Sequence record: PX915677.1
Direction: 5' to 3' (one strand)
DNA from: a phage
DNA length: 64,000 nucleotides
Positions 1 to 59,563 of this stretch are shown in pieces. A program made the translations under genes and the position numbers. Under the pieces are notes generated by a model that did not search any database, had not been told where the DNA came from, and saw only the letters and a list, made by a program, of their open reading frames with translations. Every line of letters begins with the position of its first letter. Positions within the stretch are counted from its first letter, which is position 1.

Positions 1-522
1 GTTGTTGACAAGACCAAGAATGGTCCTGCTGACCCGGATACTGGTGCAGTAACTGTTAAAGTTGCACAGAATGCTTCTAACCCGACCACTAACATTGGTT
101 TTGATGAAGCTGATATCTTTGATATGACCCTGCAACTGTATACCGCTGGTTCTGAAGCAGATATCATCATGATTAACCCAGCTCATGCTAAGATCTTCGC
201 TGGTCTGCAAGAAAATACTCAGGGTTCACGTAAGCGTATCTTTGAGAACACCAAGCAGTTCATCTACGAAGTTAACAGCATCACTGACCCGCTGGGCCAG
301 AGCTACAAAATCATCGTTAACCGTTGGATGCCTACCGATGCAGTTTACTTCTTCCGTAGCGCTGACTGGACTCAGATGGTTCTGCGTGCTCCGAAACGTA
401 CTGAACTGGCTAAAGACGGTTCTTACGAGAAGTGGATGATTGAAATGGAAGTTGGTCTGCGTCACCGCAACCCGTATGCTTCCGGCGTTCTGTTCACTGC
501 TGCGGGAAAGGTGGCGGCGTAA
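1..522 (+). CDS. major capsid protein, C-terminal part (5' partial)
   Basis: Frame-1 ORF open from base 1 to TAA 520-522 (...FTAAGKVAA*); lies directly upstream of tail genes, followed by a strong terminator and a -1 frameshift Ig-like extension as in T7 10A/10B-type capsid genes. Confidence 0.6.
   Translation, partial: VVDKTKNGPADPDTGAVTVKVAQNASNPTTNIGFDEADIFDMTLQLYTAGSEADIIMINPAHAKIFAGLQENTQGSRKRIFENTKQFIYEVNSITDPLGQSYKIIVNRWMPTDAVYFFRSADWTQMVLRAPKRTELAKDGSYEKWMIEMEVGLRHRNPYASGVLFTAAGKVAA
504..510 (+). other. -1 programmed ribosomal frameshift slippery heptamer GGGAAAG
   Basis: G_GGA_AAG in the capsid zero frame just before the capsid stop; -1 frame is open 444-1046; same heptamer class as the lambda G/GT shift site. 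Confidence 0.5.
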
Positions 523-1046
523 CAGTAGACAGTGTGACTGTTAGCCCTGCGTCTTTAGCAAGTCTAGAGACAGGGGCTACTCGGCAGTTCACTGCAAGCG
601 CGGAGAAAAGTGATGGTTCTACCGAAACAACTGGCTTTACTTGGTCAGTGACAGGAGGTGGTTCTATCACTCAGTCGGGTTTGTATACTGCTCCGAGTGC
701 GTCTCAATCCACTGATGTATCCATTACTGCAACTTTAGAAGGTGTTTCTGGTACAGCAACCATTTCTGAAATTGTTGCTCCTGCTCCTACTATTGTGAGT
801 CGTGGGCCAATTACAGGTAAAGTAGGTGGTACTACCACTAACTTCAACACCATGTTTACTGTAACTAATTCTATTGCTGATGATTACACACTTGTTGTAA
901 CTCCCGCAGAAGCTGGTACAATAAGCGCTAATAATTCGTTAAAATTAGATGCTGCTGCAAGTGGCGAAGTTACTGTTCAAGCTAGTTTGACAGCTGACCC
1001 GTCCATCAATGCAACATGCACTTTTACTGGTGTAACACCTGCTTAA
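510..1046 (+). CDS. Ig-like (Big_2-type) domain extension fused to capsid protein by -1 frameshift
   Basis: Post-slip reading GGGVTVDSVTVSPASLASLETGATRQFTASAEK...; Ig-like T/S/V-rich pattern; the listed GTG start at 534 has no Shine-Dalgarno. Confidence 0.5.
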   Translation, partial: GGGVTVDSVTVSPASLASLETGATRQFTASAEKSDGSTETTGFTWSVTGGGSITQSGLYTAPSASQSTDVSITATLEGVSGTATISEIVAPAPTIVSRGPITGKVGGTTTNFNTMFTVTNSIADDYTLVVTPAEAGTISANNSLKLDAAASGEVTVQASLTADPSINATCTFTGVTPA

Positions 1047-1147: not shown

Positions 1148-1660
1148 ATGGCAATGCCAGATTTCAGAGGGGCTTTTACATATAACCCAAATACAGGGCA
1201 TCTTTTCTGGTCTATGAGTAACGTATTCAATAAACAGAAAGGGAAACGTGCTGGATGTATTAATAATAAAGGATATCGTGTATTAACCTTCAAGAAGAAA
1301 TCATACCTAGAGCATAAGGTCATAGCTGAACTCTTTCTTCCTAAAGTAGAAGGGAAGGATTATGTCAACCATAAGAATGGAATAAAAGACGATAACAGGA
1401 TTGAGAATCTAGAGTGGTGTACTCAACAAGAAAACTGTACACATGCTTTTGAAACAGGCCTCTCAACACCTAGGAGTCTTGAGGATAACCCTAATTCCAA
1501 ACTCACTAAAGAGCAAGTTCTCTTTTGTTTGGAGAACTACAAACCGAGAGATAGAGAGTTTGGAGCTAGAGCCTTAGCTAGAAAGTTTGGGGTCTCTAAA
1601 AGCACAATATCTCTCATTACTAAAGGCGTAAACTGGAAGGAGGTTTATTATGATGCCTGA
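1148..1660 (+). CDS. HNH homing endonuclease
   Basis: HNH motif ...DYVNHKNGIKDDNRIENLEW...; C-terminal HTH-like region; SD aaggagg; overlaps next gene by 11 nt as expected for an inserted free-standing HEG. Confidence 0.75.
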   Translation: MAMPDFRGAFTYNPNTGHLFWSMSNVFNKQKGKRAGCINNKGYRVLTFKKKSYLEHKVIAELFLPKVEGKDYVNHKNGIKDDNRIENLEWCTQQENCTHAFETGLSTPRSLEDNPNSKLTKEQVLFCLENYKPRDREFGARALARKFGVSKSTISLITKGVNWKEVYYDA

Positions 1661-2399
1661 CGTCCAATACCCCATCAATACCTATGGGTGGCTAAAGAAG
1701 GCCGTGGCCCTCTGGGCAGATAGGGACGATGACGAATTTGTTAATCAAATTCCAAACTTTATTAACTTTGCAGAGAAAGAGATTTATCGTAACTTACGAA
1801 TCCCTCCTCTGGAAAAAGAAGTGTATTTAGATATCAAAGATGGAGTAGCTTATATTCCTCCTGATTACTTAGAAGCTCAATGGATGATGAGAGCCAAAGA
1901 TGGTACAATCTTCCAAGTAACCTCTCCTGAGGAGATTAGCTATCGTAGACAGCATGGAACAATTAATCCATCTCACTGGAATAACCAACCTGTTAACTTT
2001 GCTCGTTTCGGGAGTCGTTTCATTTTCTACCCTAGTATTGAAGCAGATACTCCTGTTTATCCTGATGATGGAAGCCCTTTAATTCCAGCAGAAAACTCAG
2101 TGATTCTTAGCTATTATGCAGACCCACCGGAATTCCACGAAGATACAGATACCAGTGCTATTCTTACTATCGCACCAGAACTTCTTCTGTACTTCACCCT
2201 ACGTCATGCTTGTCTCTTTGTTCAAGATGATAACGGTGTTCAGAAATGGTCAGCATTAGGAAAAGCTATCCTTGATGAAATGGTAGAGCAGAATAAGAAA
2301 CAAGAGTACTCAGGTTCACCTATCGCAATTCCGAATAACATGACTCGGCTTCAGAGCAGCTTGCCTGATATTTATGGTATTCGTACTTCTCGTGTATAA
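1650..2399 (+). CDS. virion structural protein (tail tubular/adaptor-like by position)
   Basis: 249-aa ORF with GGAGG SD immediately after capsid; function inferred only from synteny. Confidence 0.4.
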   Translation: MMPDVQYPINTYGWLKKAVALWADRDDDEFVNQIPNFINFAEKEIYRNLRIPPLEKEVYLDIKDGVAYIPPDYLEAQWMMRAKDGTIFQVTSPEEISYRRQHGTINPSHWNNQPVNFARFGSRFIFYPSIEADTPVYPDDGSPLIPAENSVILSYYADPPEFHEDTDTSAILTIAPELLLYFTLRHACLFVQDDNGVQKWSALGKAILDEMVEQNKKQEYSGSPIAIPNNMTRLQSSLPDIYGIRTSRV

Positions 2400-2408
2400 G
2401 GAGATAAT

Positions 2409-4685
2409 ATGATCGTTTATAATAACCAAGCACCTGATGCAGTGAATAACGTTGGGCAGTTTGGTGCTACTGAAGGCTCTATCGGAGCTTACAAGCAAGC
2501 AGCAGAATATGCAGCTGACTCCAAATATTGGGCACTGCTAGCAGAATCTAAGTTTGGTACAATTGATGATTTAACCGCTGAAGTAGAACGTCTATATCAA
2601 CAGGGTGTTCTGATGAAGCAGGATATTGAAGATCTTAAGCAGGATTTTAAGGATCAAGATGCTCGTTTGATGACTCTGATTGCCCAAACCAACGCAGCAG
2701 TATCGGATGCTAATAATGCCGTTGCTCTCATTAACCAAAAACTTATTGAAGTCCAGAATCAGCTTGATGTTCTGTTAGGAATGTCTGTTGATGTAACAAC
2801 TCTCCCTCCGGGAACTCCGGCTACTGGCTCTTTTAATCCTAACACTGGTGTAATCTCTTTAGGTATTCCAGAAGGTGATCCCGGAAAAGATGGTTCTGTT
2901 AAGGATTTGGATACAGCACCTACAGGTGTTCCAGAGCTAGGTGATTTAGGTTTCTATGTTGACAAAGATGACAATACCGTCCACAAAACTACTCTAGATA
3001 ACATTGCTAACTTAATCCCATCTGTCCGTTCTGTCTCTATTAACGGCGGTCCAGCTCTTGATGGAGAGGTTGCTCTAACGCTTAACAAAGAGACGGTAGG
3101 TTTAGGAAATGTTCTGAACGTTGCTCAGTACAGTCGTCAAGAGATTAATGACAAGTTTGATAAAACCACCAAGACATATCAATCTAAAGCAGAAGCTGAT
3201 GCTGACGCTCAATATCGTCAAGTTGGAGAGAAAGTCTTAGTTTGGGAAGCTACTAAGTATGAGTTCTACACTGTTGCTGCTAACAAAACATTAACTCCTG
3301 TTAAAACTGAAGGTAGAATTCTTACTGTTAATTCCCGTTCTCCAGACTCCAGTGGTAATATTGACATTACCATTCCAACAGGAAACCCTTCTCTATATCT
3401 TGGTGAGATGGTAATGTTCCCTTATGACCCAACAAAGAATATCTCCTATCCGGGCGTTCTTCCAGCCGATGGTCGTCTAGTGTCTAAAGAGTCTGCTTCA
3501 GATTTAGGCCCATCCCTTGTCAGTGGACAACTTCCTGTTGTTTCTGAAACTGAATGGCAAGCAGGGGCTAAACAATACTTCTCTTGGGGTAAATTGGCAG
3601 ATGGTATTACCGATGCAGATTCTACTAATTTTATCAACATTCGACTTCCTGATTGGACTGGAGGGGAGGCAATAAGAGCACCAGATTCTGATAAAGACTC
3701 TCAGTACAATGGGTCTGTACAGGCTCAGAAACCTTATGTTGTTACTGTAAATAACCAAGCTCCTGATGAGATTACTGGTAATGTGAACATCTCCAGATCA
3801 ATTTTAGGTGCTGCCGCTTCTGGTACAAACTCTGATATAACATCCCTCACGGGACTCACTACAGCACTGTCTGTCACACAAGGAGGCACTGGAGCTAAAA
3901 ATGCTGCTAGTGCTCGTTCTAATCTAGGGTTGGGAAGTGTTTCTACTCTGGATAATGTACCTATTGCTAATGGTGGGACAGGGGCTGGAGATGCTGCTGG
4001 TGCAAGGTTCAATATTGGAGCGCTAAGTAACACCCCAGCAAATTCAGGCGTAGGTGGTACTGGGGATCGTGTCCAACATGCCTCCGGGAACGGCCTGTTT
4101 ACTTTAGACTTGTTTAACTGCTACTGGTATATGCAGCCAGAGGATACTAACTTCTGGATTGCCCACGGTGTGTCATATGCAGGGTCTGGTGGCGAAGCCT
4201 CACAATACGGTCGCATATCTTACGCAATAAAGATTGCAGACGGAACAATAAAATATGTCCATTGTCTTACAAACAAAAACACCACTGTTGATGTAAACGG
4301 ATTTATCAAAGCGGCATCTCCGGTAGTTCATATTTACTCCGACGGTCGATATGAGACGAACGAGGAATCTGAGGGGGTTAATGTCATTCGGCAAGGTGTT
4401 GGTGAGTACTTGATTACCGGTTGCCTTGGCTTAAACGCAGATGCAAAATGGGGAGGCATTGACGGCGGCTTTGAAATCCCTACTGACCGCAACAAACAAC
4501 CTAGGGTTTGGCTGGACTATGAGATTAAAGAAGATGGTTCTATTTTAGTTAAAACCTATCACAGAACCCATCCAACCTCTCCGGTTTTTGCTAGAAATGA
4601 GATAGAAGGTTTTTCTGACGGTGATCCTATTGATATCCCGAGTGATGCTTTTATTTCAGTTCGTGTTGAAATGCCTTCTGAGTAA
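2409..4685 (+). CDS. tail fiber protein
   Basis: N-terminal coiled coil; repeated GGTGA..AAxARxNLGLG-type motifs (TQGGTGAKNAASARSNLGLGSV, ANGGTGAGDAAGARFNIGA) typical of phage tail fibers. Confidence 0.6.
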   Translation: MIVYNNQAPDAVNNVGQFGATEGSIGAYKQAAEYAADSKYWALLAESKFGTIDDLTAEVERLYQQGVLMKQDIEDLKQDFKDQDARLMTLIAQTNAAVSDANNAVALINQKLIEVQNQLDVLLGMSVDVTTLPPGTPATGSFNPNTGVISLGIPEGDPGKDGSVKDLDTAPTGVPELGDLGFYVDKDDNTVHKTTLDNIANLIPSVRSVSINGGPALDGEVALTLNKETVGLGNVLNVAQYSRQEINDKFDKTTKTYQSKAEADADAQYRQVGEKVLVWEATKYEFYTVAANKTLTPVKTEGRILTVNSRSPDSSGNIDITIPTGNPSLYLGEMVMFPYDPTKNISYPGVLPADGRLVSKESASDLGPSLVSGQLPVVSETEWQAGAKQYFSWGKLADGITDADSTNFINIRLPDWTGGEAIRAPDSDKDSQYNGSVQAQKPYVVTVNNQAPDEITGNVNISRSILGAAASGTNSDITSLTGLTTALSVTQGGTGAKNAASARSNLGLGSVSTLDNVPIANGGTGAGDAAGARFNIGALSNTPANSGVGGTGDRVQHASGNGLFTLDLFNCYWYMQPEDTNFWIAHGVSYAGSGGEASQYGRISYAIKIADGTIKYVHCLTNKNTTVDVNGFIKAASPVVHIYSDGRYETNEESEGVNVIRQGVGEYLITGCLGLNADAKWGGIDGGFEIPTDRNKQPRVWLDYEIKEDGSILVKTYHRTHPTSPVFARNEIEGFSDGDPIDIPSDAFISVRVEMPSE

Positions 4686-4694
4686 TTTAACAAT

Positions 4695-4713
4695 GCTCCC
4701 TTCGGGGGGCTTT
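4695..4713 (+). terminator. terminator-like hairpin
   Basis: gctccc-ttcg-gggggc stem with UUCG loop followed by TTT. Confidence 0.4.
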
Positions 4714-4725
4714 AAGGAGATTTAA

Positions 4726-6924
4726 ATGTCTAGAGAATTAATGCCCAAATCTGGTATAATGATGCCTCATGTGGTTGTAACCAGAGACGCGGCTGTTGTT
4801 GGGGTTTCTACTGTAGATGGACAGGCTGGAGCTATTAACCTCACCGGAAAATATTTACAGAAAACCGACGCAGCTGCTACCTATCAAACTAAAACAGAGG
4901 GTGCATCTAAAGATTTTGTGCTGGATTCGATTCAACCTATTATGTCTGGTGCGCTGTTCCGAGAAGACCCTTGGGTTGTTAATGATACCCCATTCCGTTC
5001 TACTGGAGCTAATGGTGTAGAATCAGTTGATATGATGAAAGTTACTACTGATAACTCAATCAAGATTGGTAGTTATGCCTCTTCAGTTCAAGGTGTAGAG
5101 ATTCATTCTGCTGGTCGTCTTCAGGTTGTTGACCAGAATGACTCTGGGGTAGAAACTAAGTATCCAGTTTATTCTAAACGTTACCGTCCTGAGATTGAGG
5201 ATTTGCCTTTTGCTGCAATTGGTTCTTATGTTAAAGACTCTAAAGGTCGTACGGTAGGTGTTACTCGTACAGGGATTAACTCTGATATCAAACAGCTCAC
5301 ACAGAAAGTTACTTTCACTCAACCAGTAACTGTCCCTGATGCAGTTGGTGATCATGATGCGGTTACTTTGAGACAGCTTCGAAACAGTGGTGGTGGCTCT
5401 GGTGGTCCTACGATGAGCGGTATCTCTAACTTTGGTATTGGTGATTTCCATTTACGTGACAGTCGAGCTTTTATTCCAGCTTTTGAGGTAACGTCAGACG
5501 GTCAGCTTCTTAATCGTTCAGAGTACCCAGATCTCTGGGCTTATGCACAGCTGTTATCCCCTATCTCAGATTCTGAATGGCTTAGTGATGCCCAAAAACG
5601 TGGACAGTACTCTACTGGTGATGGTTCTACTACTTTCCGCGTTCCAGACCGCAACGGGGTTCAGGTCGGTTCTATTAGGGAGCTATTTGGTCGCGGTGAT
5701 GGTGGTACATCATCCAACGATGGTGTTATCTATGATTCTGCTGCACCTAATATCAAAGGTAAGGTCGCTGGTGTATCAGCCGGGACTTATGCAGGGATAT
5801 TCGGGACGTCTGTGCAAGATTCATTCTATACGGATAACAGTTTGTATCCGGCTGGTGGAGGGGACACTATACCTCCGGGGTCCGGTGCAGTTGATGGACG
5901 TAATAATACTCTAGTCTTCGACGCAAGCCAGTCCAACCCAGTTTATGGTCGTTATAGTATCTCTGACAACATTATACCGAGAAACTTTGTGGGGGTTTGG
6001 ACTATTCGTGCTCATGGTGGATTTGTTGCTGCTAATACTTCTTGGTCTGTTATTAATAGTGACACCACACGACCTTCCAACGGAACGAAAGTTTCTAGTG
6101 GGTCAGTTGTCTCTGAGTATAAAATCGGTTCAGAAGTAGAAGCTTCTACTACTCTCAAAACTGATGCCTACATCAACGGAGCTTACTATGGAATCATTGA
6201 CGTCTACAATAAAACTAAAGGAGTTACCAAGCAGTTAGCTTTCGACGATTCTGGTACACTGAATTCTGATAGGTATGTTTCTAGATTTGGCACTTTGATG
6301 TCTTGGAGTGAAACAGGAGCTAGGAAAGGAACATTCTCCATGGACAACCAAGGGCTAGGGTCTAACTTCTCCTTCAATTCCATACTAAGTGCTTCTCAAT
6401 CATCTAGTGGGGGATACAAGACCACCACTCATGTTGGCATGATTCACAACGACGCCGGAACTTTTGCCGATTCTTGCTGGCACGTTGCAGGTGATGAAGA
6501 CAACAAATACGGTTGCCGTCTAACACTTCGACCAAACAGGAATGAGATTTTATATTATACTTGGCAACCCGGCTCTACTGGAACATACACTCTTGCTCTG
6601 AATCCCGTGTCAGATGAAAGATTAAAACATGATATCCAAGATATTTCCCCTGAGAAAGCTATCAAAGCTATTAAAGGTTTGGATTTCAAATCATTTGTGT
6701 ATAACAATGATGAGCAAGGAAGAACTCGTCGTGGTATTATTGCACAGCAAGCAGAAAAGGTAGAACCTCTTTATGTTAAGACTCGTAGGTTCCACGACAA
6801 TGATGGTGTAGAGCAAGAACAGAAAGAGCTAGACTCAGCTCCTATGCTCCTTGATACTATGCAGGTTGTTCAAGACCTTCTGAAGCGTATTGAAGTTCTA
6901 GAAGCAAAACTAGCAGAGAGGTAA
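4726..6924 (+). CDS. tail fiber/tailspike with C-terminal intramolecular chaperone (peptidase S74-like) domain
   Basis: C-terminus ...NPVSDERLKHDIQDISPEKAIKAIKGLDFKSFVYNND...GIIAQQ... matches the autoproteolytic chaperone domain of phage fibers and endosialidases; SD aaggag. Confidence 0.65.
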   Translation: MSRELMPKSGIMMPHVVVTRDAAVVGVSTVDGQAGAINLTGKYLQKTDAAATYQTKTEGASKDFVLDSIQPIMSGALFREDPWVVNDTPFRSTGANGVESVDMMKVTTDNSIKIGSYASSVQGVEIHSAGRLQVVDQNDSGVETKYPVYSKRYRPEIEDLPFAAIGSYVKDSKGRTVGVTRTGINSDIKQLTQKVTFTQPVTVPDAVGDHDAVTLRQLRNSGGGSGGPTMSGISNFGIGDFHLRDSRAFIPAFEVTSDGQLLNRSEYPDLWAYAQLLSPISDSEWLSDAQKRGQYSTGDGSTTFRVPDRNGVQVGSIRELFGRGDGGTSSNDGVIYDSAAPNIKGKVAGVSAGTYAGIFGTSVQDSFYTDNSLYPAGGGDTIPPGSGAVDGRNNTLVFDASQSNPVYGRYSISDNIIPRNFVGVWTIRAHGGFVAANTSWSVINSDTTRPSNGTKVSSGSVVSEYKIGSEVEASTTLKTDAYINGAYYGIIDVYNKTKGVTKQLAFDDSGTLNSDRYVSRFGTLMSWSETGARKGTFSMDNQGLGSNFSFNSILSASQSSSGGYKTTTHVGMIHNDAGTFADSCWHVAGDEDNKYGCRLTLRPNRNEILYYTWQPGSTGTYTLALNPVSDERLKHDIQDISPEKAIKAIKGLDFKSFVYNNDEQGRTRRGIIAQQAEKVEPLYVKTRRFHDNDGVEQEQKELDSAPMLLDTMQVVQDLLKRIEVLEAKLAER

Positions 6925-6928
6925 TATA

Positions 6929-6946
6929 AGCCCCTTCGGGGGCTTT
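6929..6946 (+). terminator. terminator-like hairpin
   Basis: agcccc-ttcg-ggggct stem with UUCG loop, then TT. Confidence 0.45.
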
Positions 6947-7016
6947 AGTAGTGAGTACCCTTAGTAAGTAATGAAACTAATATATCCCAAGAGGTTAATA
7001 TATAGGAGACACTCAA

Positions 7017-7235
7017 ATGAAAATGATGAAACAAGCTGCATATGGTTTAATATGTTTAGGCGCAGGTGTTGTGGTATCCACCGCAGTTCCTGTAGGCGCA
7101 GTTCATCCATTAGTAACTGTCCCTGCTCCAGTAGAGAAGCTTAGCTCTCAATGCAAGCAGAGAACAATTCAAAATAACTTAGTTGTTATTTGCCCTGATG
7201 CTGAATCTAACGCTCTGAGAAAGATACTACCTTAA
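7017..7235 (+). CDS. small membrane/secreted protein adjacent to endolysin (holin or lysis accessory candidate)
   Basis: 72 aa, N-terminal hydrophobic segment AAYGLICLGAGVVVSTAVPVGAV; SD taggag; directly upstream of the lysozyme gene. Confidence 0.35.
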   Translation: MKMMKQAAYGLICLGAGVVVSTAVPVGAVHPLVTVPAPVEKLSSQCKQRTIQNNLVVICPDAESNALRKILP

Positions 7236-7264
7236 TTTAAAGGGACTACAAAAGGAGGTTAGAA

Positions 7265-7756
7265 ATGGATAACGTCGCATTGCCACCTGTACAACTAAAC
7301 TTAAGCCCAGCTGGAATGGAATTCATCATGAAGCATGAGGGTATGAGAACAAAGGCTTATAAAGATTCCGCAGGTATCTGGACTATATGTGTAGGGGCTA
7401 CGCGCGATATGAATGGTTATCCGGTTAGACAAGGATTAACGTATTCTATAGAGGATTGTCTAGCTCTGCTAGATAGAGACACACAAGACTCTGTTCGTGC
7501 TACTCAGAAGAACATAAAGGTTCCTTTACTGGTTCATGAGTTTGATGCACTCACTTCTTTCAACTTCAATGTTGGCAGTGGGGCTTTAAGCACATCTAAG
7601 TTAAGGAAGGTAATCAATGGAGATGTTAAGGGGGATGTTTATTCCGAATTTCTTCGTTGGGATAAAATAACGGTCAAGGGAGAGAAGCAGAGAAGTCAGG
7701 GTCTTCATAATAGAAGAGTTGCAGAAGCTAATCTTTACACCGAAGGTAAATATTAA
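7265..7756 (+). CDS. endolysin, phage lysozyme (GH24-like)
   Basis: ...FIMKHEGMRTKAYKDSAGIWTICVGAT... with the Glu/Asp/Thr catalytic pattern of T4/P22-type lysozymes; SD aaaggagg. Confidence 0.8.
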   Translation: MDNVALPPVQLNLSPAGMEFIMKHEGMRTKAYKDSAGIWTICVGATRDMNGYPVRQGLTYSIEDCLALLDRDTQDSVRATQKNIKVPLLVHEFDALTSFNFNVGSGALSTSKLRKVINGDVKGDVYSEFLRWDKITVKGEKQRSQGLHNRRVAEANLYTEGKY

Positions 7757-7768
7757 TGGAGGTGCCTT

Positions 7769-8572
7769 TTGGCTATCGAAACTAATGCGGTAGTTATTAC
7801 CGACTTAAACCCACTCTATCCTAGAGACAGGGATTACATCTACGAAGGGGCGGCTCAAATCCGCCTCATTAAACAAACGTTACAGAACACATTCCCCAAT
7901 GTTACAGAGCCAGTTGATATAGATTCTGACACCTTTAAGATCATGTCAGAGAAGCTCAAATTTACTGGTGATGCAATGGATGTTGGTGGTCTTATGATCA
8001 AGAACGTTACTCCGGGAACTGGTGACAAGGACGTTGTTACTAAAGGCCAGATGGAAGCGTTCATGAAGAACTGGATGGAGAATAAAGTATTCCGTATTGG
8101 TGCTTACTATATCACTGAAGAAGACATTAACCCCGGTGATTCTATCTCCTTAGGGTTTGGTTCTTGGGCTAAAGTGACTGGTGTCATTATGGGTACTGGT
8201 GTAGTAAACCCTGATGGTTCTGTCCCTAATGCTCAGAGAGTTGAGTTCCAAGCAGGTGGTACTGGTGGTCGTGTCTTCAATACCATTCGAACAGAGAACG
8301 TACCTTTGATGACAGTTAATGGCTCCAGCTTCTCTCTGTCCAGTAATACTCATAGTCACAATATGGTGTTTGGTCGTGGAGATGCTAGTGGTCATAACAG
8401 CTCGCCAAACTGGTATAGTCCGGGTGGTGGATATAGTCAGAGAACTGATAATGACACACATACTCATACAATCTCTGGTAGTGTAAGTCTTGGTCGTGAT
8501 GATATTTCTCGTCAACCTATTAACACTTTGCCACCATTCAGAGCAGCTCACATTTGGAGACGTATTAGCTAA
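7769..8572 (+). CDS. tail fiber/collar-like structural protein
   Basis: 267 aa; TTG start 6 nt after GGAGG; Gly/Ser/Thr/His-rich C-terminus (HTHTISGSVSLG...INTLPPF) resembling fiber collar domains. Confidence 0.4.
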   Translation: MAIETNAVVITDLNPLYPRDRDYIYEGAAQIRLIKQTLQNTFPNVTEPVDIDSDTFKIMSEKLKFTGDAMDVGGLMIKNVTPGTGDKDVVTKGQMEAFMKNWMENKVFRIGAYYITEEDINPGDSISLGFGSWAKVTGVIMGTGVVNPDGSVPNAQRVEFQAGGTGGRVFNTIRTENVPLMTVNGSSFSLSSNTHSHNMVFGRGDASGHNSSPNWYSPGGGYSQRTDNDTHTHTISGSVSLGRDDISRQPINTLPPFRAAHIWRRIS

Positions 8573-8581
8573 GGAGGAATT

Positions 8582-11500
8582 ATGGCGCTGTATCCAATAA
8601 AGTCACTAGGTGCTGTAGGCGTTATCGCTGACCAAGCTCCGACAGACTTAGCTCCTAATGCTTTCACTAATGCTATAAATGCTCGATTTGTTGAGCAGAG
8701 AGTATTTAAGACGGGGGGCAATGCCCCTCTTTCTTATGTAGATGAAGATAAGGATTTAACCCCTCTGTCTTTCGTTTCTATGCCTTTCGATTATTATAGC
8801 GCAGGTAATAGCTTTCTTGTTGTAGGTACTAATAAGAAGTTATATAAACTGACAGATGAAAGCTTGACTGATATTAGCCGTAAGGTTGCTACAGTCACTA
8901 AGAAGGCTTCTGCCTCAATTAAGATTTATCCAGTTGTTTCTCAGATCGTTCCTAAAGAATCAACTATCTCAATGAACTTCAATCAGACCAAGAATCTAGA
9001 GGTTTCTCTTCTCCCTGCTGATGCTAACAATACCGATCTTATTTGGGAGGTTAGTAACTCATCCTATGGAAGTATTACGGTAGACCCTAGTGACTCTAAA
9101 CTTGCTACTCTAACATCTTTTGAGAAAGAGGGTAATCTTGTAGTAACTATCTCTACTGCCAATGAATCCGTAGTGGCTCAGATTGCTGTTAATATCATCG
9201 ATGGTGATTCAGGCATCTTCTTGAGTCAAGATACTGTTACAATTCGTAAAGGAGGGACTACTACTCTCACGGCTGTTACTGGTAAAACTCCTGTAACTTG
9301 GTCCAGCAATAATGCTTCTATTGTATCCGTAACCCCTAACGCCAACTCTTTAACTGCTGTCATCACAGCGAACGGAGAAGGTAATGTAACAATCACTGCT
9401 GATAACGGGACTAAGACTGCTTCTTGTGAGATTGTTTCTATCCCTCAGATTGATAGTATCTCTTTAAGCCAGTCAGATGTTACTGTGAGTAGAGGTTCTC
9501 AGTATATCTTAACTGCTACCCTTTCTCCTGCTAACGCCCCTAATCAAAATATTACTTGGACCTCTTCTAACCCAAATATTGCAACAGTATCAGGGACTAG
9601 CACACAAGGGACGATCAACGCTCTGCTTGCTGGTTTTACTGAGATTACAGCTACCACTGAAGAAGGTAACAGAGTTGCTGTCTGTACTGTACGTGTGGAT
9701 TTAGCTGGAAGGACAATGAGAACAAGTGCTATGGCATTTGCCGCTCCTGTGTCAGAGTCAGTAGAAACTCAAGAGGAAGAAGTAGTAACTCCTCCTGAAA
9801 GTGAAGAGACGGTTTATTTTGCTGAGCCTACATCCGGTATTGATACGTCAGGGATGTATGAAGGTAACAACTTCTATGACTACTCTAACGTGAATGATAT
9901 TGAAGGTTTTGCAAGAGCTTCTTTACTGGCAACCCCTTTGTCATCTGTAACCTTAGATATTGTCAGCGCTTCTCTTGATGTTGGTGAAGAGATTGTCATT
10001 ACAGCCACAGCTTCTCCAGAAGGTGAGTACTCTTATCAGTGGTCTGTTGATAAAACTGGTTATGTTTCTACAACTTCAGTTACTGGTAAATCTATCAAAC
10101 TGGTTGCTCTTCGTAAAGGAGAGATTAACGTAACATGTACTGTCAGTCAGATGACTCAGAAAGATTACGATGCTTTTGATGACTATCCTTGGTATCACGC
10201 TGTTATCTCTAACTGTGCAGTTGCTACAACTCACTATGAAACTCCTCAGGTAAAAGAATTCGAATCAGAATACTTTGTAGATCTTCCGGGATGGGGTGAG
10301 CAAACAGTTGTTGATAATGACGGAAACCCTTCAGTCAAGAAGTTTAACTGGAAATGTGAGAGAGTAAGATCTTTTAACAACCGTCTTTTTGCTCTGAATA
10401 TGAGAGAGGCTAATGCTTCTGGTGTTACCACTAACTACCCGCTTCGTCTTCGTTGGTCTAACTTTGCCAATGAGAACAAGGCTCCTACACTGTGGGATGA
10501 CTTTGCCTATGATCGAGTTGTGTCTTCGGACTTAGCTTCTAACATCGTAGGGCAGACTCAGGCTCTAGAGAATGGGTATGCTGGTTACATTGACTTAGCA
10601 GATTCTAATGGTAGCTTGATTGATATCCTACCTCTTAAGGATTACTTGTTCGTTTATACAGAGTTTGAAACGTATATTGGTTCTCCGACTAATAACACGT
10701 ACCAACCTCTAATGTTCAAGAAGCTCTTTAACGACTCTGGTATCCTTGCTCCCGAGTGTGTGGTTGAAGTAGAAGGTAGTCACTTCGTAGTTACTCAGAA
10801 CGATGTAATCTTACACAACGGTGCAACTAAGAAGTCAATTGCATCTAACCGTGTCAAGAACATGCTGATTAACGAGGTGTGTCTGGTTAATCCTTTAGCA
10901 ACTCGAGTACACTTGCATCAGGATAAGAAAGAAGTTTGGGTTCTCTATGTAGGACCGGGGGAGCCAAAAGAAAGCTTCGCTTGTACTAAAGCTGCTGTAT
11001 GGAATTACGAGTTTGATACTTGGTCTTTCCGTACTATCCCATATGCTCAGTGTATTGGTCTGGTTGATCCTCCTGTTTTAGAAAGAGGTCCAATCTGGTC
11101 TGACTTCCAAGAAATCACTTGGGATGACCCATCTATTAAAGAACTCGTTTGGAGAAAGGATGCAACAAACTTTAGACAGAGGGTTACGATAGTAGGTTCA
11201 TTCTTGAAGGGATTCTATCAGGTGGATGTAGGCGCTCTTGATTATTTCTATGACAGGCTAAATGATGTTGTTATAGAGAAGCCTCTGGAAATGAGGTTGG
11301 AGAGGACTGGTATAGATTTTGATAATGTGACGAATGAGTGGAATCAGAAGCATATTAATAGATTCCGACCTCAGACAACTGGTTCAGGTACTTACATATT
11401 TGAAGCTGGTGGTAGTCAATTCTCAAATGAATATGGACACCCACACACATCTAAGACATATACGATCGGTGTTGACAGGCATGTCTCGGTGAGACTGAAC

Positions 11501-11599
11501 CATCCATACCTTTTCTATAATGTTATAGATAATGATGTTAACAGTAATGCTGCTATCAATGGTTTAACGATAGAGTTTGCTGTTGGCGGGCGGAGATAA
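8582..11599 (+). CDS. large tail fiber/spike-like protein with multiple Ig-like (Big_2) repeats
   Basis: 1005 aa; at least four repeats of the pattern ...SxxxVtVxxGxtxxLTAtxxPxxAxNxxxxWxSSNxxxAtV...; SD aaggagg. Confidence 0.55.
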   Translation: MALYPIKSLGAVGVIADQAPTDLAPNAFTNAINARFVEQRVFKTGGNAPLSYVDEDKDLTPLSFVSMPFDYYSAGNSFLVVGTNKKLYKLTDESLTDISRKVATVTKKASASIKIYPVVSQIVPKESTISMNFNQTKNLEVSLLPADANNTDLIWEVSNSSYGSITVDPSDSKLATLTSFEKEGNLVVTISTANESVVAQIAVNIIDGDSGIFLSQDTVTIRKGGTTTLTAVTGKTPVTWSSNNASIVSVTPNANSLTAVITANGEGNVTITADNGTKTASCEIVSIPQIDSISLSQSDVTVSRGSQYILTATLSPANAPNQNITWTSSNPNIATVSGTSTQGTINALLAGFTEITATTEEGNRVAVCTVRVDLAGRTMRTSAMAFAAPVSESVETQEEEVVTPPESEETVYFAEPTSGIDTSGMYEGNNFYDYSNVNDIEGFARASLLATPLSSVTLDIVSASLDVGEEIVITATASPEGEYSYQWSVDKTGYVSTTSVTGKSIKLVALRKGEINVTCTVSQMTQKDYDAFDDYPWYHAVISNCAVATTHYETPQVKEFESEYFVDLPGWGEQTVVDNDGNPSVKKFNWKCERVRSFNNRLFALNMREANASGVTTNYPLRLRWSNFANENKAPTLWDDFAYDRVVSSDLASNIVGQTQALENGYAGYIDLADSNGSLIDILPLKDYLFVYTEFETYIGSPTNNTYQPLMFKKLFNDSGILAPECVVEVEGSHFVVTQNDVILHNGATKKSIASNRVKNMLINEVCLVNPLATRVHLHQDKKEVWVLYVGPGEPKESFACTKAAVWNYEFDTWSFRTIPYAQCIGLVDPPVLERGPIWSDFQEITWDDPSIKELVWRKDATNFRQRVTIVGSFLKGFYQVDVGALDYFYDRLNDVVIEKPLEMRLERTGIDFDNVTNEWNQKHINRFRPQTTGSGTYIFEAGGSQFSNEYGHPHTSKTYTIGVDRHVSVRLNHPYLFYNVIDNDVNSNAAINGLTIEFAVGGRR

Positions 11600-11605
11600 C
11601 AACAA

Positions 11606-11632
11606 GGGGCTTCGTGCCCCTTTTATTGTTTT
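11606..11632 (+). terminator. rho-independent terminator
   Basis: ggggc-ttcgt-gcccc stem followed by TTTTATTGTTTT. Confidence 0.7.
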
Positions 11633-11642
11633 GGAGGAACTT

Positions 11643-12611
11643 ATGGGTGCAGGTGGTTTTCGTAAGAACACTGGTCGCAACAACACCACACTCCCGTACA
11701 ACGTTGGGTTTCTCAATAATGTACAGGACACAGAAACATATAACGTAGCCGTATATGATGAGCTACAAAAAGTCAGTACAGCTACTAACCAAATGTTCCA
11801 AGCTATTGATGAGATTCACGATGAGATTGATGTTCGTATCAAAGCTCTCCATGCGATGAACTTACAATTTGATGAGCTTGAGAATAGAATTACTACAGAG
11901 ATAGAGACAGCTATTGCCGATATCCAAACACAGATGGGGAATCTCTCCACTGAAGATATTTGGGATAATTCTGTTCAACCTCCTGTGAAATTAGAAAGCA
12001 CTGTATCTGGTTTTAAAACAAGTATTGAAGGTAACACAACCAAGATTCAAACGGTAGAAGGTATTGTCAACGATCAAGGTCAAGAGATTGCTTTTGTTCA
12101 GACAGAGATTCAAAATATTAATGGAAGCCTATCTCAGTATATGAAGCTCTCTGAGTATGAAGCTACGTGGGGTGTTAACTCTACAGTCAACGGAAGATAT
12201 GCTGGGGTCAAGTTAACTAACAACGGAACAAACAGCCAATTCCAAGTAACAGCTAACAAATTTATTGTTGGTGATGGCAACTCTGGTAATACTCCCTTCG
12301 TGTTTGAAGGTGGGCGAGCTAGGATGGAATTCGCTGATATAAAGAACGTCAATATCACAACAGCTCAGATTGCTAACGCTAGAATCCAATGGGCACAGAT
12401 TGATAACGTATCCATCTCCAACGCCCAGATTCAGAACTTATCAGCGGATAAAATCACTGCTGGTTCTATGTGGGGTTCTAACTGGAGACTAACTGTTGGT
12501 GGTGACTTTGTTATGGGTGGTACAGGTGGGGCGCAGTTGTGGATGAATGGTAACAGAATCGACTTCTACGATGGAAGTGGTGCTCTGAGAATTAGAATAG
12601 GGAGTTGGTAA
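11643..12611 (+). CDS. virion structural protein (coiled-coil, fiber-like)
   Basis: ATG 11643 with GGAGG SD preferred over the listed 11577 start, which overlaps the terminator; coiled-coil N-half, NISNAQIQN-type repeats. Confidence 0.5.
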   Translation: MGAGGFRKNTGRNNTTLPYNVGFLNNVQDTETYNVAVYDELQKVSTATNQMFQAIDEIHDEIDVRIKALHAMNLQFDELENRITTEIETAIADIQTQMGNLSTEDIWDNSVQPPVKLESTVSGFKTSIEGNTTKIQTVEGIVNDQGQEIAFVQTEIQNINGSLSQYMKLSEYEATWGVNSTVNGRYAGVKLTNNGTNSQFQVTANKFIVGDGNSGNTPFVFEGGRARMEFADIKNVNITTAQIANARIQWAQIDNVSISNAQIQNLSADKITAGSMWGSNWRLTVGGDFVMGGTGGAQLWMNGNRIDFYDGSGALRIRIGSW

Positions 12612-12612
12612 T

Positions 12613-13632
12613 ATGGCATATGGAATATGGTGTCAACCTGTAGGTCCGGGGCCAGCTGCCCCTGCCCCTCTTTTTATTGACAGTAATCTAACATTTCCAC
12701 AATACCTAGGGGCATACAGCATATCCCCTTCGTGGAGTGCTAGAAACGCTTCATTTAATGTCGGCTCTTTTGATGGTCAAGGAGAGTTATTAATTGTCCC
12801 AACTAGTAGACTTATTCAAGACTATTACGTAGGGACGGATTTAATGCCTAGTTTTAGCTATGTAACAGGTATAGGGACTTCTGGACAAACAGTAAATATT
12901 AACATAGAGCCTGCTGGAGCTAGCGGTAATAACAATAGAAGCTTCCCAATGTCTTTCCAAGCATATAAACTATGGCCTAGAGGTAATAGAAGTTATGGAA
13001 TAACTTTCTCCAACTCAGCAGATTTCTTCTCTATCTCTGATAGTGGGGTTGTTGGTCAATGTGTTTGGGCGTACAGAGGGGCTGTAGGAGATGGTTTTAC
13101 TGTTCCTAATGCTGGTCCTAACGCTCTTGTGTTTGCTAATTGGAATCAGGGTGGGGTGTGTGCTTCTTACAATGCAAGCAATGGTCAAATGATCATAACC
13201 CACAACAGATCAAACCAGTCCGGAAGTAACAGGGGTGCAGTAATAAATGATATGAGGATCGCTGTTTTTGCCAGTGGAGTGGGTGTGCCAGAACATAATG
13301 GGGGTTTGAATATTTATTCTCCCGGAACTACTGCTTGCGTATTCTCTACTTACAGGACTCCTTTTGCTATTAGCAGGTTCTTCCCATCTAGTGGGGGTGA
13401 TACAGGTCTAGGTATTCCTATGATGTGTATGAACGTTACCAATGGAGCTATAACAGCGCAAGGGGGTGGGTGGATGTGGGTTCATGAAAGATCCCATACA
13501 ATGAGTGGTACATCGGTAGGAACAGGATTTGGACCACTTGTGGCTAACTGGACTGATCAATACCCAATCAATGTTAACATAAACCTAGGATTCAATTACC
13601 CAATGTTGGAAGGTTCTTTAATTTATGCATAA
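12613..13632 (+). CDS. virion structural protein
   Basis: 339-aa ORF, SD ggag, inside the structural operon. Confidence 0.4.
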   Translation: MAYGIWCQPVGPGPAAPAPLFIDSNLTFPQYLGAYSISPSWSARNASFNVGSFDGQGELLIVPTSRLIQDYYVGTDLMPSFSYVTGIGTSGQTVNINIEPAGASGNNNRSFPMSFQAYKLWPRGNRSYGITFSNSADFFSISDSGVVGQCVWAYRGAVGDGFTVPNAGPNALVFANWNQGGVCASYNASNGQMIITHNRSNQSGSNRGAVINDMRIAVFASGVGVPEHNGGLNIYSPGTTACVFSTYRTPFAISRFFPSSGGDTGLGIPMMCMNVTNGAITAQGGGWMWVHERSHTMSGTSVGTGFGPLVANWTDQYPINVNINLGFNYPMLEGSLIYA

Positions 13633-13641
13633 GGAGATATT

Positions 13642-14424
13642 ATGGCAATCAGAATGGGTATCGAAGAACTAGACCCAATGGTTCAACAGGCTTCAAAGAA
13701 GTATGGGATTCCTGCTGCTTTAATTCATGCTGTCATCCAAAGAGAGTCCAGTGGTCGTCCTACAGTGGCCTCTGGAACTGGTCCTGTAGGTTTAATGCAG
13801 ATCAGTAAAGGGTTGGCTAAAGATTACGGTTACAAACTAGAAGATAGACTTGACCCAGCAAAGAATATTGATATGGGCGCTCGTTACATAAGAGATAACT
13901 TAAAAGCTTTTAATGGTGATGTTAAGAAAGCAATGGTTGGTTATTCAGAAGGTATCGGTGGAGCTAAGCAAATGTTCGCTGGTAAAAAGGGGTTTACTCC
14001 ACAAGCTCTTGACTCCATGAACAATAAACACTTTCTTCCTTTCTATGGTGATGCAGCCTCTCAGATTGCTAACCCTGTTGGAGCTTTGCAAGCTGTTCAA
14101 CCAGTCAATCAGTTTAGTCCTGACTTGTTAGATAGAGAGAAGGCCGCACAAGCTCCAACTCAGGCAGAGATTGCTGCTTCTAAGACAGGTGCTTTAGGTG
14201 GAAATCCAGTAGAGTTTTACTCTGATGAAGTGCAGGAAGGCGAAAATCAGAAACCTCAACAGAACTTTGGTAATGCAGTATTAGGGGTAGCTGCTATGCT
14301 TGCTGGTAAACCTCCCACTTCTCAAACAGTTCAGAGGGCAAGTGCACCACATGCAGCAGGTTCTCAGTACAGTCCACAAACACAAGCAGTGCTCAGACGT
14401 CTGGCTAGCATTGGTGTAAAGTAA
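13642..14424 (+). CDS. virion-associated lytic transglycosylase (SLT domain protein)
   Basis: ...ALIHAVIQRESSGRPTVASGTGPVGLMQISKGLAKDYGY... matches the SLT catalytic core (E-S ... GLMQ); SD taaggag. Confidence 0.7.
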   Translation: MAIRMGIEELDPMVQQASKKYGIPAALIHAVIQRESSGRPTVASGTGPVGLMQISKGLAKDYGYKLEDRLDPAKNIDMGARYIRDNLKAFNGDVKKAMVGYSEGIGGAKQMFAGKKGFTPQALDSMNNKHFLPFYGDAASQIANPVGALQAVQPVNQFSPDLLDREKAAQAPTQAEIAASKTGALGGNPVEFYSDEVQEGENQKPQQNFGNAVLGVAAMLAGKPPTSQTVQRASAPHAAGSQYSPQTQAVLRRLASIGVK

Positions 14425-14443
14425 TAATCTTTAAGGAGGACTT

Positions 14444-15496
14444 ATGTCTTTATTTGGAAAATCAGCTTCTAGCAAAACCACAGTGGCCCCTTCCTCTCAG
14501 GTTGATGCCCTGCTGAAGCAGATTGTTGCTAATGCTCAGAATATGCAGAACAACGATCCGGGATTCATCTCCCAACAACTGGCTGGGTTTAATGGCAACC
14601 AACAGGGTGCTCTGAACAACTTAGCAGCTTCTACTACTCAGAAGAAACTAGCTGATATGTATACACCACGTACACAGCAAGGGTTGGACCAATTAAACTC
14701 TCTTGCACAGCAGTATCAGAATATTGTCAATGGTGGTGGTCTAACTGCTGATGGTGTTAATAACTTCAGTAAAGGACTAAACAGCTCAGCTCTTGCTCAA
14801 GCGACTAGTAAGGCAGCTTCCAATGTATCTCTCGGAAATGGTTCTGATTCAGGTTCTCTCCGTAGAGCTGCTGCTCAAGGTGCTGCTCTGAACAGTGCTA
14901 ATACAAACTTAGCTCGTACTATCAGTGGCAAGAATATGGGAATCAGTGCTCTTCAACAAGACCAAAACTTCCAGAGGGGGTTACTTGGTGCTCAGTCAGG
15001 ATTGGCTGGACAGAATCTCAATCTTGGTGCTCAAGGTGTTCAGGCAACTCAACAAGCTATCCAGAATCAACTCATGGCTGGTAATCTACAACAGCAACAA
15101 GCCCAAGCTCAAGCTGATATTAATTGGCAGAACGCTATTGGCTCTCAACAGTATGGGTGGAATCAGCTTAACAACCAACTTAATGTATTAAATAGTGTAA
15201 GCCCAATGGCTGGGTACACGATTAAGAATGCTGCTCCGGGGGTTAATACTGGACAACAGCTCCTAGGTGCTGGTATCACTGGATTAGGTATTGCAGGTCG
15301 TATGGGTGCTTTCTCTCCTAATCAACAGACTCAGAATGCTTGGAGTTCCTATAACAACTCAGGTGGGCAATCTGGAATGGCTGGTCCTATGATTGGTGGT
15401 TCTAATCTTTCTCAACAGAAAGGTCAGTCTAACTGGTTATCCACAGCAGGTAGTAATATCTTAGGTGGTGTCTTAGGGGCATTTGGAGCAAACTAA
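14444..15496 (+). CDS. Gln/Asn/Gly-rich internal virion (ejection) protein, paralog A
   Basis: 350 aa low-complexity Q/N-rich with C-terminal Gly-zipper hydrophobic segment; shares FNxNQxxALNNLA with 15509..16477. Confidence 0.4.
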   Translation: MSLFGKSASSKTTVAPSSQVDALLKQIVANAQNMQNNDPGFISQQLAGFNGNQQGALNNLAASTTQKKLADMYTPRTQQGLDQLNSLAQQYQNIVNGGGLTADGVNNFSKGLNSSALAQATSKAASNVSLGNGSDSGSLRRAAAQGAALNSANTNLARTISGKNMGISALQQDQNFQRGLLGAQSGLAGQNLNLGAQGVQATQQAIQNQLMAGNLQQQQAQAQADINWQNAIGSQQYGWNQLNNQLNVLNSVSPMAGYTIKNAAPGVNTGQQLLGAGITGLGIAGRMGAFSPNQQTQNAWSSYNNSGGQSGMAGPMIGGSNLSQQKGQSNWLSTAGSNILGGVLGAFGAN

Positions 15497-15508
15497 AGGA
15501 GATTTGAT

Positions 15509-16477
15509 ATGGGACTTTTCGGAGGCGGGGGTAGTAAAACTACTTCCCAAATGATTCGCCCTGAATACATTCAACAGTATATTGACCAGCTTAACCAACA
15601 GATTGGTAATACTAGTTCAGGGGATTATGTTTATCGTGACAGTGTAGGGTTTAATAACAATCAGACAGAGGCACTTAACAACCTAGCACAATCTGGCGCT
15701 CTAGGTACTCTCTCACAGCAGTATATGGATGCAGCAGGTCAAGGCTTGGGTTATCTAGATAATGCCTATAAAGGTTATCAGAGCCTCTCTGGACAAGGTG
15801 GGATTACTGGAGAGCAGATTGGTGCTCTCGCTGGTCAACTGTATGATGATGACGCTGTGCAAGCAGCCATTACAGCTAATAATGAACAGGTTCAACAGAA
15901 CTTGGCACGTAATGCTCTTCCTCAGTTGGCTCAACAGTTTGCCGGTCAACAAGGTTCAGGTGCTCGTATGGCTAAGTCTTTTGCCCAAGGTGATGCTCTG
16001 AATCAGATGCAAGGGCAAGCAACAGATATTACCAATAGTGCATATAACTCGGCTATCAGCCAAGCTGAAAGCATCCTCTCTGGTAATAGACAGAATCAGG
16101 CAGCTGCTCTCTCTGGTCTTTCTAATATTGGTTCTAACCTTTCTAACCTAGGTCAGCAGGGTGCTAATTTGTCTCAACAGCAAATAATGAATCAATGGAA
16201 TGCAGGGTTGCAGCAACAACAGCAACAACAGAATGAATATGATAATGCCTACCAGAATGCTCAGAACGCAGCTAATTGGGGATGGCAAGATATCAATAAC
16301 CAACTCGGTGCAGCAGGTGTACTTAACGGTGCTCTCGGACAAACTACAACTACTAAAACATCTGGTGGCAAAGGTGGTTTCCTTGGTGGAGCTATGAGTG
16401 GTGCAGCAGCTGGCTCTTCCTTTGGACCTTGGGGTGCATTAGCTGGGGGTGTAATCGGTGGGTTGGCTAGTACTTAA
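15509..16477 (+). CDS. Gln/Asn/Gly-rich internal virion (ejection) protein, paralog B
   Basis: 322 aa; same architecture as 14444..15496; C-terminal GGFLGGAMSGAAAGSSFGPWGALAGGVIGGLAST. Confidence 0.4.
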   Translation: MGLFGGGGSKTTSQMIRPEYIQQYIDQLNQQIGNTSSGDYVYRDSVGFNNNQTEALNNLAQSGALGTLSQQYMDAAGQGLGYLDNAYKGYQSLSGQGGITGEQIGALAGQLYDDDAVQAAITANNEQVQQNLARNALPQLAQQFAGQQGSGARMAKSFAQGDALNQMQGQATDITNSAYNSAISQAESILSGNRQNQAAALSGLSNIGSNLSNLGQQGANLSQQQIMNQWNAGLQQQQQQQNEYDNAYQNAQNAANWGWQDINNQLGAAGVLNGALGQTTTTKTSGGKGGFLGGAMSGAAAGSSFGPWGALAGGVIGGLAST

Positions 16478-16490
16478 TTAGGAGATAAAT

Positions 16491-18140: not shown

Positions 18141-18160
18141 GACCTAAGTCCTGCCTTCTA

Positions 18161-18169
18161 TAATGTATA
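18161..18169 (+). promoter_or_regulatory. candidate phage-specific promoter element TAATGTATA
   Basis: ctaTAATGTATAtag 39 nt upstream of ATG 18208. Confidence 0.4.
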
Positions 18170-18207
18170 TAGGGGGTAGGACATTTTTATTTATAAAAGG
18201 AGACGTT

Positions 18208-59487: not shown

Positions 59488-59563
59488 TGGTGCGCCCTAC
59501 AGGACTCGAACCTGTAACCAATAGCTTAGAAGGCTACTGCTCTATCCATTGAGCTAAGAGCGC
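59488..59563 (-). tRNA. tRNA-Arg (anticodon TCT)
   Basis: Hand-folded cloverleaf: acceptor GCGCTCT/AGGGCGC, D-arm GCTC-AATGGAT-AGAGC, anticodon loop CTTCTAA, T-arm ACAGG-TTCGAGT-CCTGT, encoded CCA. Confidence 0.8.

Follow-up and report, generated by a model that had tools for sequence, protein, structure and literature searches.

Organization of the capsid locus and the slip site

The first 1150 positions of the window (the whole stretch of phage DNA that was analyzed, 64,000 nucleotides) shared 96–99% DNA identity with about 70 phiEco32-like E. coli podophages (Kuravirus, Gordonclarkvirinae), the closest match being vB_EcoP_DE5 (99.0% DNA identity). The + strand, on which all the features described here are located, begins with the 3' part of the major capsid protein gene (1–522), i.e., the last 173 codons of its 0 frame and the stop codon TAA at 520–522, while the 5' end lies beyond the window. 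The encoded part matched the Pfam family SU10_MCP (PF17236) with an E value of 1.1e-33 (117 bits against a cutoff of 24.1). Its 173 residues corresponded to residues 180–352 of the SU10 major head protein (PDB 7z45; E 5.8e-114), and tblastn showed 99.4% identity to SU10. The terminator scan revealed an intrinsic terminator at 1051–1084, consisting of a stem-loop (1051–1074; 10 bp including six GC pairs) followed by a T-run, and a terminator is annotated at the equivalent place in the Paul and SU10 records. Since this terminator is located immediately 3' of the second reading frame described below, one abundant late transcript is expected to carry both reading frames. An HNH gene, absent from phiEco32, is present just downstream in this phage.

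The 0 frame of the capsid gene ends as ...ACT GCT GCG GGA AAG GTG GCG GCG TAA, in which G_GGA_AAG (504–510) is placed in the X_XXY_YYZ register of a −1 slippery heptamer, with a gap of 9 nt (511–519) to the stop codon. In the −1 frame, no stop codon occurs between the TGA at 441–443 and the TAA at 1044–1046, so that this frame is open from 444. The first-pass annotation had drawn attention to the heptamer, to its distance of 9 nt from the capsid stop, and to the open frame with its Gly-Gly-Gly linker, all of which were confirmed by direct reading and translation. Slippage would re-pair tRNA-Gly from GGA to GGG in the P site and tRNA-Lys from AAG to AAA in the A site. The product would then read ...TAAGK|GGGVTVDSVTV..., its −1 part (510–1046) comprising 178 codons before the stop, of which those at 510–518 encode the linker. 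G_GGA_AAG is known to be highly shift-prone in E. coli (PMC5009743). The bare string GGGAAAG was not enriched, with four copies in the window against 6.9 expected. Both strands of the 64 kb were scanned for the whole configuration, namely, an ORF of ≥150 codons whose final 30 codons contain X_XXY_YYZ (Y = A/T) and whose −1 extension is ≥50 codons long; 504–510 was the only site returned. No Shine–Dalgarno (SD)-like sequence was visible in the 20 nt upstream of the heptamer. The identification of the slip site is further strengthened by its conservation and by the annotation of phage Paul, both described below.

Two other routes to a longer capsid product were considered. Transcriptional slippage, in which RNA polymerase deletes a base, would yield the same protein as ribosomal slippage, and sequence alone cannot formally separate the two. 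The homopolymer runs at the site, however, are only GGG and AAA, whereas productive slippage of bacterial RNA polymerase generally needs runs of about seven or more A or T (PMC5009743), and the conserved motif is the exact in-register heptamer for tandem tRNA slippage. The transcriptional route is thus considered very improbable. Readthrough of the capsid stop codon was rejected, as a second 0-frame stop, TAG at 526–528, is present two codons past the TAA.

Conservation of the site and predicted fold of the extension

The heptamer GGGAAAG was invariant in 20 distinct Gordonclarkvirinae sequences. It was also retained in the Proteus phage P59, the capsid of which is 56% identical and where the heptamer directly abuts the stop codon. 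The P59 extension carries different Ig domains (I-set + Big_2), which indicates that the slip site is older and more stable than its cargo. Linker indels of 0, +3, or +6 nt among the relatives gave a distance of 9, 12, or 15 nt between the heptamer and the stop codon; as these indels are always multiples of 3, the −1 relation of capsid and extension is always maintained. The extension comprises 178 codons in this phage and in phiEco32, 217 in TH34, 370 in EK010, 459 in Bas86, and 545 in Paul, and a length of 178–545 codons was kept open in every relative examined except SU10, in which a 1-nt insertion shortens it to 11 codons. Across the relatives, the amino acids of the extension were conserved amid abundant synonymous change.

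These data bear on the view that heptamer and open frame coincide by chance and that the extension is a decaying, unexpressed remnant. The chance-level frequency of GGGAAAG in the window and the loss of the extension in SU10 speak for such a view. Against it stand the preservation of amino acids and of open frames outside SU10, the confident folding of 178 codons into two Ig domains in the predicted model (see below), and the detection of the extended product in relatives. The pattern of conservation effectively refutes the remnant, to which only a negligible probability is assigned.

A search for additional occurrences contributed little to this comparison. The pattern scan of viral contigs yielded only loci found by the other searches. 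A single metagenome scan was carried out with the pattern TTYACNGCNGCGGGAAAG, which was overly degenerate and returned 120 loci; of the loci checked, L031 proved to be the only true relative, and the match at L089 was due to chance.

Tertiary structure prediction of the extension using AlphaFold2, with an input alignment of 25 sequences, gave an all-beta model with a mean pLDDT of 96.4. The model showed two domains, at about 519–773 and about 783–1043, following the linker. Foldseek comparison with the PDB placed the tandem Big_2 domains of Leptospira LigA (8gyr) at the top (E 3e-11), and the matches also included Big_2-CBM56 (7r3t), LigB Ig (2mog), the phi29 gp8 prohead protein, and RB49 Hoc. 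Among viral models, the top match was an 894-aa 'Major capsid protein', which is the annotated frameshift product of Paul (E 1.9e-21); T7-like Pseudomonas phages were represented by minor capsid proteins and Salmonella phage 7-11 by its long capsid paralogue. The extension also matched PHROG 13745, 'Ig domain containing protein' (E 2.4e-75).

Sequence-based searches gave weaker signals. The extension had no match in Pfam at the default threshold; at E ≤ 10, Big_2 was recovered with 16.7 bits (E 0.0072), short of the cutoff of 22.8. The Paul homologue was just over the Big_2 cutoff (23.4 bits), and distant sequence homologues of the extension carry PF02368. The PDB sequence search with the extension returned only marginal matches (E about 0.1). 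Since Pfam Big_2 is reached only below threshold in this phage, the fold assignment rests on structure prediction, according to which the extension is composed of two tandem Big_2-type Ig-like domains. The Ig-like, beta-rich character proposed in the first-pass annotation was therefore upheld by the model, whereas the single domain it had proposed gave way to two in tandem in both the AlphaFold2 and the Foldseek analyses.

The probable capsid–Ig fusion and the GTG codon at 534

The addition of Ig domains to the capsid protein by frameshifting is already described and annotated for phiEco32-like phages. GGGAAAG is found at the same capsid codons in phiEco32 (gp11/gp12), Paul, YF01, SU10, and Privateer, and the extension of phiEco32 has the same sequence as that of the present phage. 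Nothing essential differs between this phage and the Kuravirus group, within which the length of the extension varies. The note attached to the joined CDS in the RefSeq record of Paul reads 'Frameshift at GGGAAAG; Frameshift in PhiEco32 major capsid protein product as well (PMID: 18294652)', and the YF01 record has a joined CDS as well. The capsid of YF01 'and other group phages' has been described as existing in two forms, with slippage at GGGAAAG adding an Ig-like domain (PMC9965538). In SU10, the site was identified and forms of 38.5 and 55.4 kDa were reported by mass spectrometry (PMC4281155). In virions of Privateer, both bands were seen and the minor product was found, mass spectrometry being part of the evidence (PMC7881722, which cites phiEco32 and SU10); for phiEco32, the two forms are taken here from that citing paper and from the Paul record.

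Taken together, this is very probably where the major capsid gene of Kuravirus (phiEco32-like) phages undergoes programmed −1 ribosomal frameshifting. The majority of ribosomes would stop at the TAA and give the 352-aa HK97-fold capsid protein, while a minority would slip one base back on G_GGA_AAG and translate the 178 codons of the −1 frame. The long product would be of ~527 aa, comprising the capsid protein up to ...TAAGK, the Gly3 linker, and the two Ig-like domains. Since it carries the complete capsid fold, the fusion is expected to co-assemble, and by analogy with other phages it may do so as a minor subunit of the prolate head with the Ig domains facing outward. The efficiency of frameshifting, itself deduced here, would set the stoichiometry of the two forms. 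For this phage, the analysis established the site, its register, the open frame, their conservation, and the lack of a signal for an independent start, along with a predicted Ig fold. Two capsid species are known in the literature from virions of relatives and are probably formed in this phage as well.

The possibility that the Ig ORF is an independent gene was examined at the GTG at 534–536, from which annotators begin a separate ORF ('Ig domain containing protein'). Initiation there, perhaps by termination–reinitiation, would produce a free decoration protein of 170 aa, attached to the capsid by non-covalent binding. The codon is placed 11 nt past the capsid TAA, and coupled reinitiation is possible at such a distance without a strong SD sequence. 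The GTG is retained in the subgroup of the window's type (phiEco32, SU7, Bas94, ShigP1, and 101114UKE3), and in the SU10 structure paper gp10 is considered a potential minor capsid protein in its own right. The first-pass annotation had stated that the GTG lacks a ribosome-binding site, and this proved correct. The anti-SD duplex at 534 amounted to −1.7 kcal/mol, the weakest among the late-operon starts, as against −7.3 to −12.4 kcal/mol at the starts chosen for late genes on the + strand (1148–18208). In seven relatives with an otherwise conserved extension (NJ01, KBNP1711, ECBP2, Paul, EK010, Bas86, and TH34), the codon is a synonymous GTA, or ATA, and the first codon that could serve as a start is located within the domain, 51–144 nt past the heptamer. 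The 'start' assigned by gene callers ranges from residue 9 to about residue 70 of the extension. The peptide VTVDSVTVSP, located upstream of the called starts, is conserved and aligns with the beginning of bacterial Big_2 domains. It forms beta-strand A in the AlphaFold2 model, so that the conserved coding sequence begins upstream of the GTG, which falls inside the strand.

Further evidence against an independent gene comes from the RNA and from the reading frame. The GTG is located in the base of a conserved hairpin of −32.6 kcal/mol (described below). The frame relation to the capsid survives every indel, which an independent gene would not need, and two species of capsid size have been reported for relatives. 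It can be concluded that GTG 534 is probably not a real start and that an independent Ig gene is improbable, although a trace of free protein may be made from it in this phage. The first-pass annotation had held that the domain is most likely made only as a minor capsid fusion. The fusion agrees with the conserved frame relation, with the lack of an SD sequence, and with the two forms in the literature; that it is made only in this way, we infer. In most database records, the extension has an entry of its own with an arbitrarily chosen start. RefSeq phiEco32 is among them, its next ORF being phi32_12 ('Ig domain containing protein'), which begins at the counterpart of GTG 534. The finding is of importance mainly for annotation, the biologically supported product being the capsid–Ig fusion.

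The two modes of expression differ in the peptides expected from virions. The junction peptide proposed in the first-pass annotation would not survive tryptic digestion, as trypsin cleaves precisely at the Lys of the junction. The tryptic peptide GGGVTVDSVTVSPASLASLETGATR begins upstream of GTG 534 and is obtainable by frameshifting only, and independent initiation at the GTG would give (f)MTVSPASLASLETGATR. A peptide spanning the junction, ...FTAAGKGGGVTV(D), would be obtained with Glu-C, Asp-N, or chymotrypsin.

Several well-characterized systems resemble this arrangement. The slip sites of T7 and T3 are G_GUU_UUC and C_CCA_AAG, respectively, and that of lambda G/GT is G_GGA_AAG. Lambda G/GT is not known to require a strong local stimulatory structure. 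T3/T7 gene 10A/10B is, like the present locus, an HK97-fold capsid gene of an E. coli podophage in which a −1 frameshift close to the 3' end gives a minor, C-terminally extended capsid protein, and the T3 extension is Ig-like (PMC5009743; PMC9965538). The T3/T7 capsid family is, however, unrelated in sequence to SU10_MCP. The T7 heptamer differs in its X_XX part, G_GU, the extension of T7 lacks an Ig-like character, and frameshifting in T7 needs a distal element >200 nt downstream (PMC5009743). Lambda G/GT shares the host translation apparatus and has a low, fixed efficiency of about 3.5% (PMC9965538), but it encodes a tail assembly chaperone and not a capsid protein, its fusion is not present in the virion, and it has no Ig domain.

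Big_2 or Ig-like domains are found on the capsids of other phages, often added by frameshifting (Fraser et al. 2006; phi29 gp8 BIG2; T4 Hoc), and Ig-like extensions delivered by frameshifting recur on the coat proteins of T3, A2, A118, and A500 (PMC5009743). In phi29 gp8, the domain is in frame on every subunit, whereas here only the frameshifted minority would carry Ig domains; Hoc is a separate decoration protein, in contrast to the covalent fusion proposed here. Salmonella phage 7-11 and ECO319P1, with capsids of the same SU10_MCP family, likewise have two capsid species, the longer of which carries Big_2 domains at its C terminus. The longer one arises without frameshifting from the second of two paralogous capsid genes, which is fused in frame to the Ig domains. 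The two 7-11 capsids are 74% identical, and a terminator is annotated between their genes.

The only Kuravirus head structure is that of SU10, in which cryo-EM resolved 715 subunits (Tend = 4, Tmid = 20) with no extra density; no long capsid band was seen in that work. Both findings follow from the 1-nt insertion that truncates the extension, which has also been noted in the literature (PMC9965538). The only solved head is from a phage with a truncated extension ORF in its deposited genome. The SU10 cryo-EM and SDS-PAGE results (2022) conflict with the earlier mass-spectrometry claim for SU10 (2014). Decoration of the head surface by the Ig domains we infer from analogy, and they probably serve to adhere weakly to surface carbohydrates, a function that has been proposed for Ig domains of other phages. 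Weak binding of host or mucosal glycans by the Ig-bearing minor subunits is possible and would be of relevance to the therapeutic E. coli phages of the group.

RNA hairpins downstream of the slip site

RNA structure prediction downstream of position 510, suggested as a check in the first-pass annotation, yielded a weak hairpin at 9 nt and a strong, conserved one at 19–26 nt. The former is a 7-bp hairpin (520–543) formed by UAACAGU (520–526) and ACUGUUA (537–543), 9 nt past the heptamer. Its folding energy of −6.7 kcal/mol did not stand out from that of shuffled sequences (z +0.46). Its stem columns were nearly invariant and its loop variable among the relatives, and it excludes the long hairpin and vice versa. 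No canonical stimulator was found at 5–9 nt past the heptamer. The stem-loop enclosing the heptamer, as proposed for SU10, was also predicted here. It was rejected as a candidate, as it lacked convincing covariation and would be melted by the ribosome positioned on the site.

The long hairpin at 530–594, within the extension ORF, was supported by folding energy, covariation, and wobble constraint. It had a dG of −32.6 kcal/mol (z −4.68), and none of 200 shuffled sequences was equally stable. Across the 20 distinct sequences, 98.6% of the cells were paired, compared to 30–50% with slid partners. One pair was GC in eight sequences, UA in eight, and AU in four, and was unpaired in none; one partner is the third, synonymous position of a Ser codon, and the other, at a distance of 14 nt, is the second position of a variable E/P/Q/L codon. 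The 11 paired wobble positions comprised seven that were invariant, three that showed only C/U opposite G or A/G opposite U, and one that was compensated, whereas all eight unpaired wobble positions varied (one-sided Fisher probability about 0.007, by our own count). These patterns in the aligned sequences indicate that selection acts on the RNA at 530–594.

The conserved stem begins 23–26 nt past the heptamer (19 nt past it in this phage), and the hairpin is too far away for a classical stimulator. The distance from the capsid TAA to the base of the conserved stem is a constant 11 nt (14 nt from the first base of the TAA). Rfam contained no family at the site or the hairpin, and its sub-threshold matches all fell on the terminator. 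A description of the hairpin was not found in the accessible literature on the group, in which only the small stem-loop enclosing the heptamer is mentioned; the hairpin is possibly the only unreported item at this locus. It might, tentatively, be viewed as a non-canonical element that tunes the ratio of short to long capsid protein, a role that we rate as conceivable and short of even odds by a wide distance. Possible modes of action include a distal modulation of frameshifting, as in T7 gene 10, or an effect on termination in the 0 frame. RNase III-type processing to a capsid-only mRNA, mRNA stability, and masking of GTG 534 are possible as well. The hairpin could be a tractable handle on how the capsid ratio is set.

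RNA hairpin within the Ig-extension ORF

A strong RNA hairpin was located at window positions 530-594 (+), within the ORF of the Ig extension, with a folding energy (dG) of -32.6 kcal/mol and a z-score of -4.7. Among 20 distinct relatives the hairpin was found to be kept, with one covarying pair (GC/UA/AU), and the region displayed a pattern of synonymous-site constraint. The distance from the slip site to the start of the hairpin is 19-26 nt, and 11 nt lie between the capsid stop codon and the conserved base of the stem, which contains GTG 534, the annotated start of a separate Ig-domain ORF.

Capsid extensions in related phages

The GGGAAAG heptamer is also present in the more distant Proteus phage P59 (L017 3462-3974), where it immediately adjoins the capsid stop codon. 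The -1 extension of P59 comprises 169 codons and encodes an I-set Ig domain and a Big_2 domain, unlike that of the window; hence, the slip site has been kept while its cargo has been swapped. In the P59 record, the annotation of this extension is limited to a short internal ORF. The IMG/VR contig 3300033688_000038 (L009), whose more distant capsid homologue shows 62% identity, carries the heptamer A_AAA_AAG (3450-3456) 3 nt upstream of the capsid stop and has a -1 open frame of 42 codons. This heptamer may represent a different slip site at the equivalent place.

In the GenBank sequence of SU10, the ORF of the extension carries a 1-nt insertion (L014 ~3535; column 56 of alignments A1/A3), owing to which the -1 product is cut to 11 codons. 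This truncation fits the 2022 cryo-EM and SDS-PAGE work on SU10, in which no long capsid form was seen, but is at odds with the 55.4-kDa capsid form reported in 2014 (PMC4281155). Therefore, either the stocks differ or one of the results is wrong.

The more distant relatives Salmonella phage 7-11 and ECO319P1 were observed to reach the same end as the window phage, a second and longer capsid species, without frameshifting. Each harbors two tandem capsid paralogues (L018 1511-4287 and L016 2539-4643, respectively), the second of which is an in-frame fusion to Big_2 domains. The paralogues of 7-11 share 74% identity, and a terminator is annotated between the two genes.

HNH gene insertion and other features of the window

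At 1148-1660 (+), with junctions at ~1130-1165 and ~1640-1665, the window carries a free-standing gene for an HNH endonuclease (Pfam HNH_3). It is missing from phiEco32 and DE5; Bas86 carries an HNH gene at the equivalent place. The insertion point lies directly after codon five of the adaptor gene, and the original RBS and first codons of the adaptor (MAMPD) are now used by the inserted gene. The adaptor gene now begins anew at 1650 (MMPDVQYP), preceded by a new RBS located in the 3'-terminal part of the HNH gene.

A single tRNA-Arg gene (anticodon TCT) was identified at 59488-59563 (-); no other tRNA or Rfam match was detected in the window. The database search also returned MZ417522.1, a 25-kb record titled 'Mycolicibacterium phage J1', which is 98.6% identical to this region of the E. 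coli Kuravirus; the entry has probably been mislabelled or contaminated.
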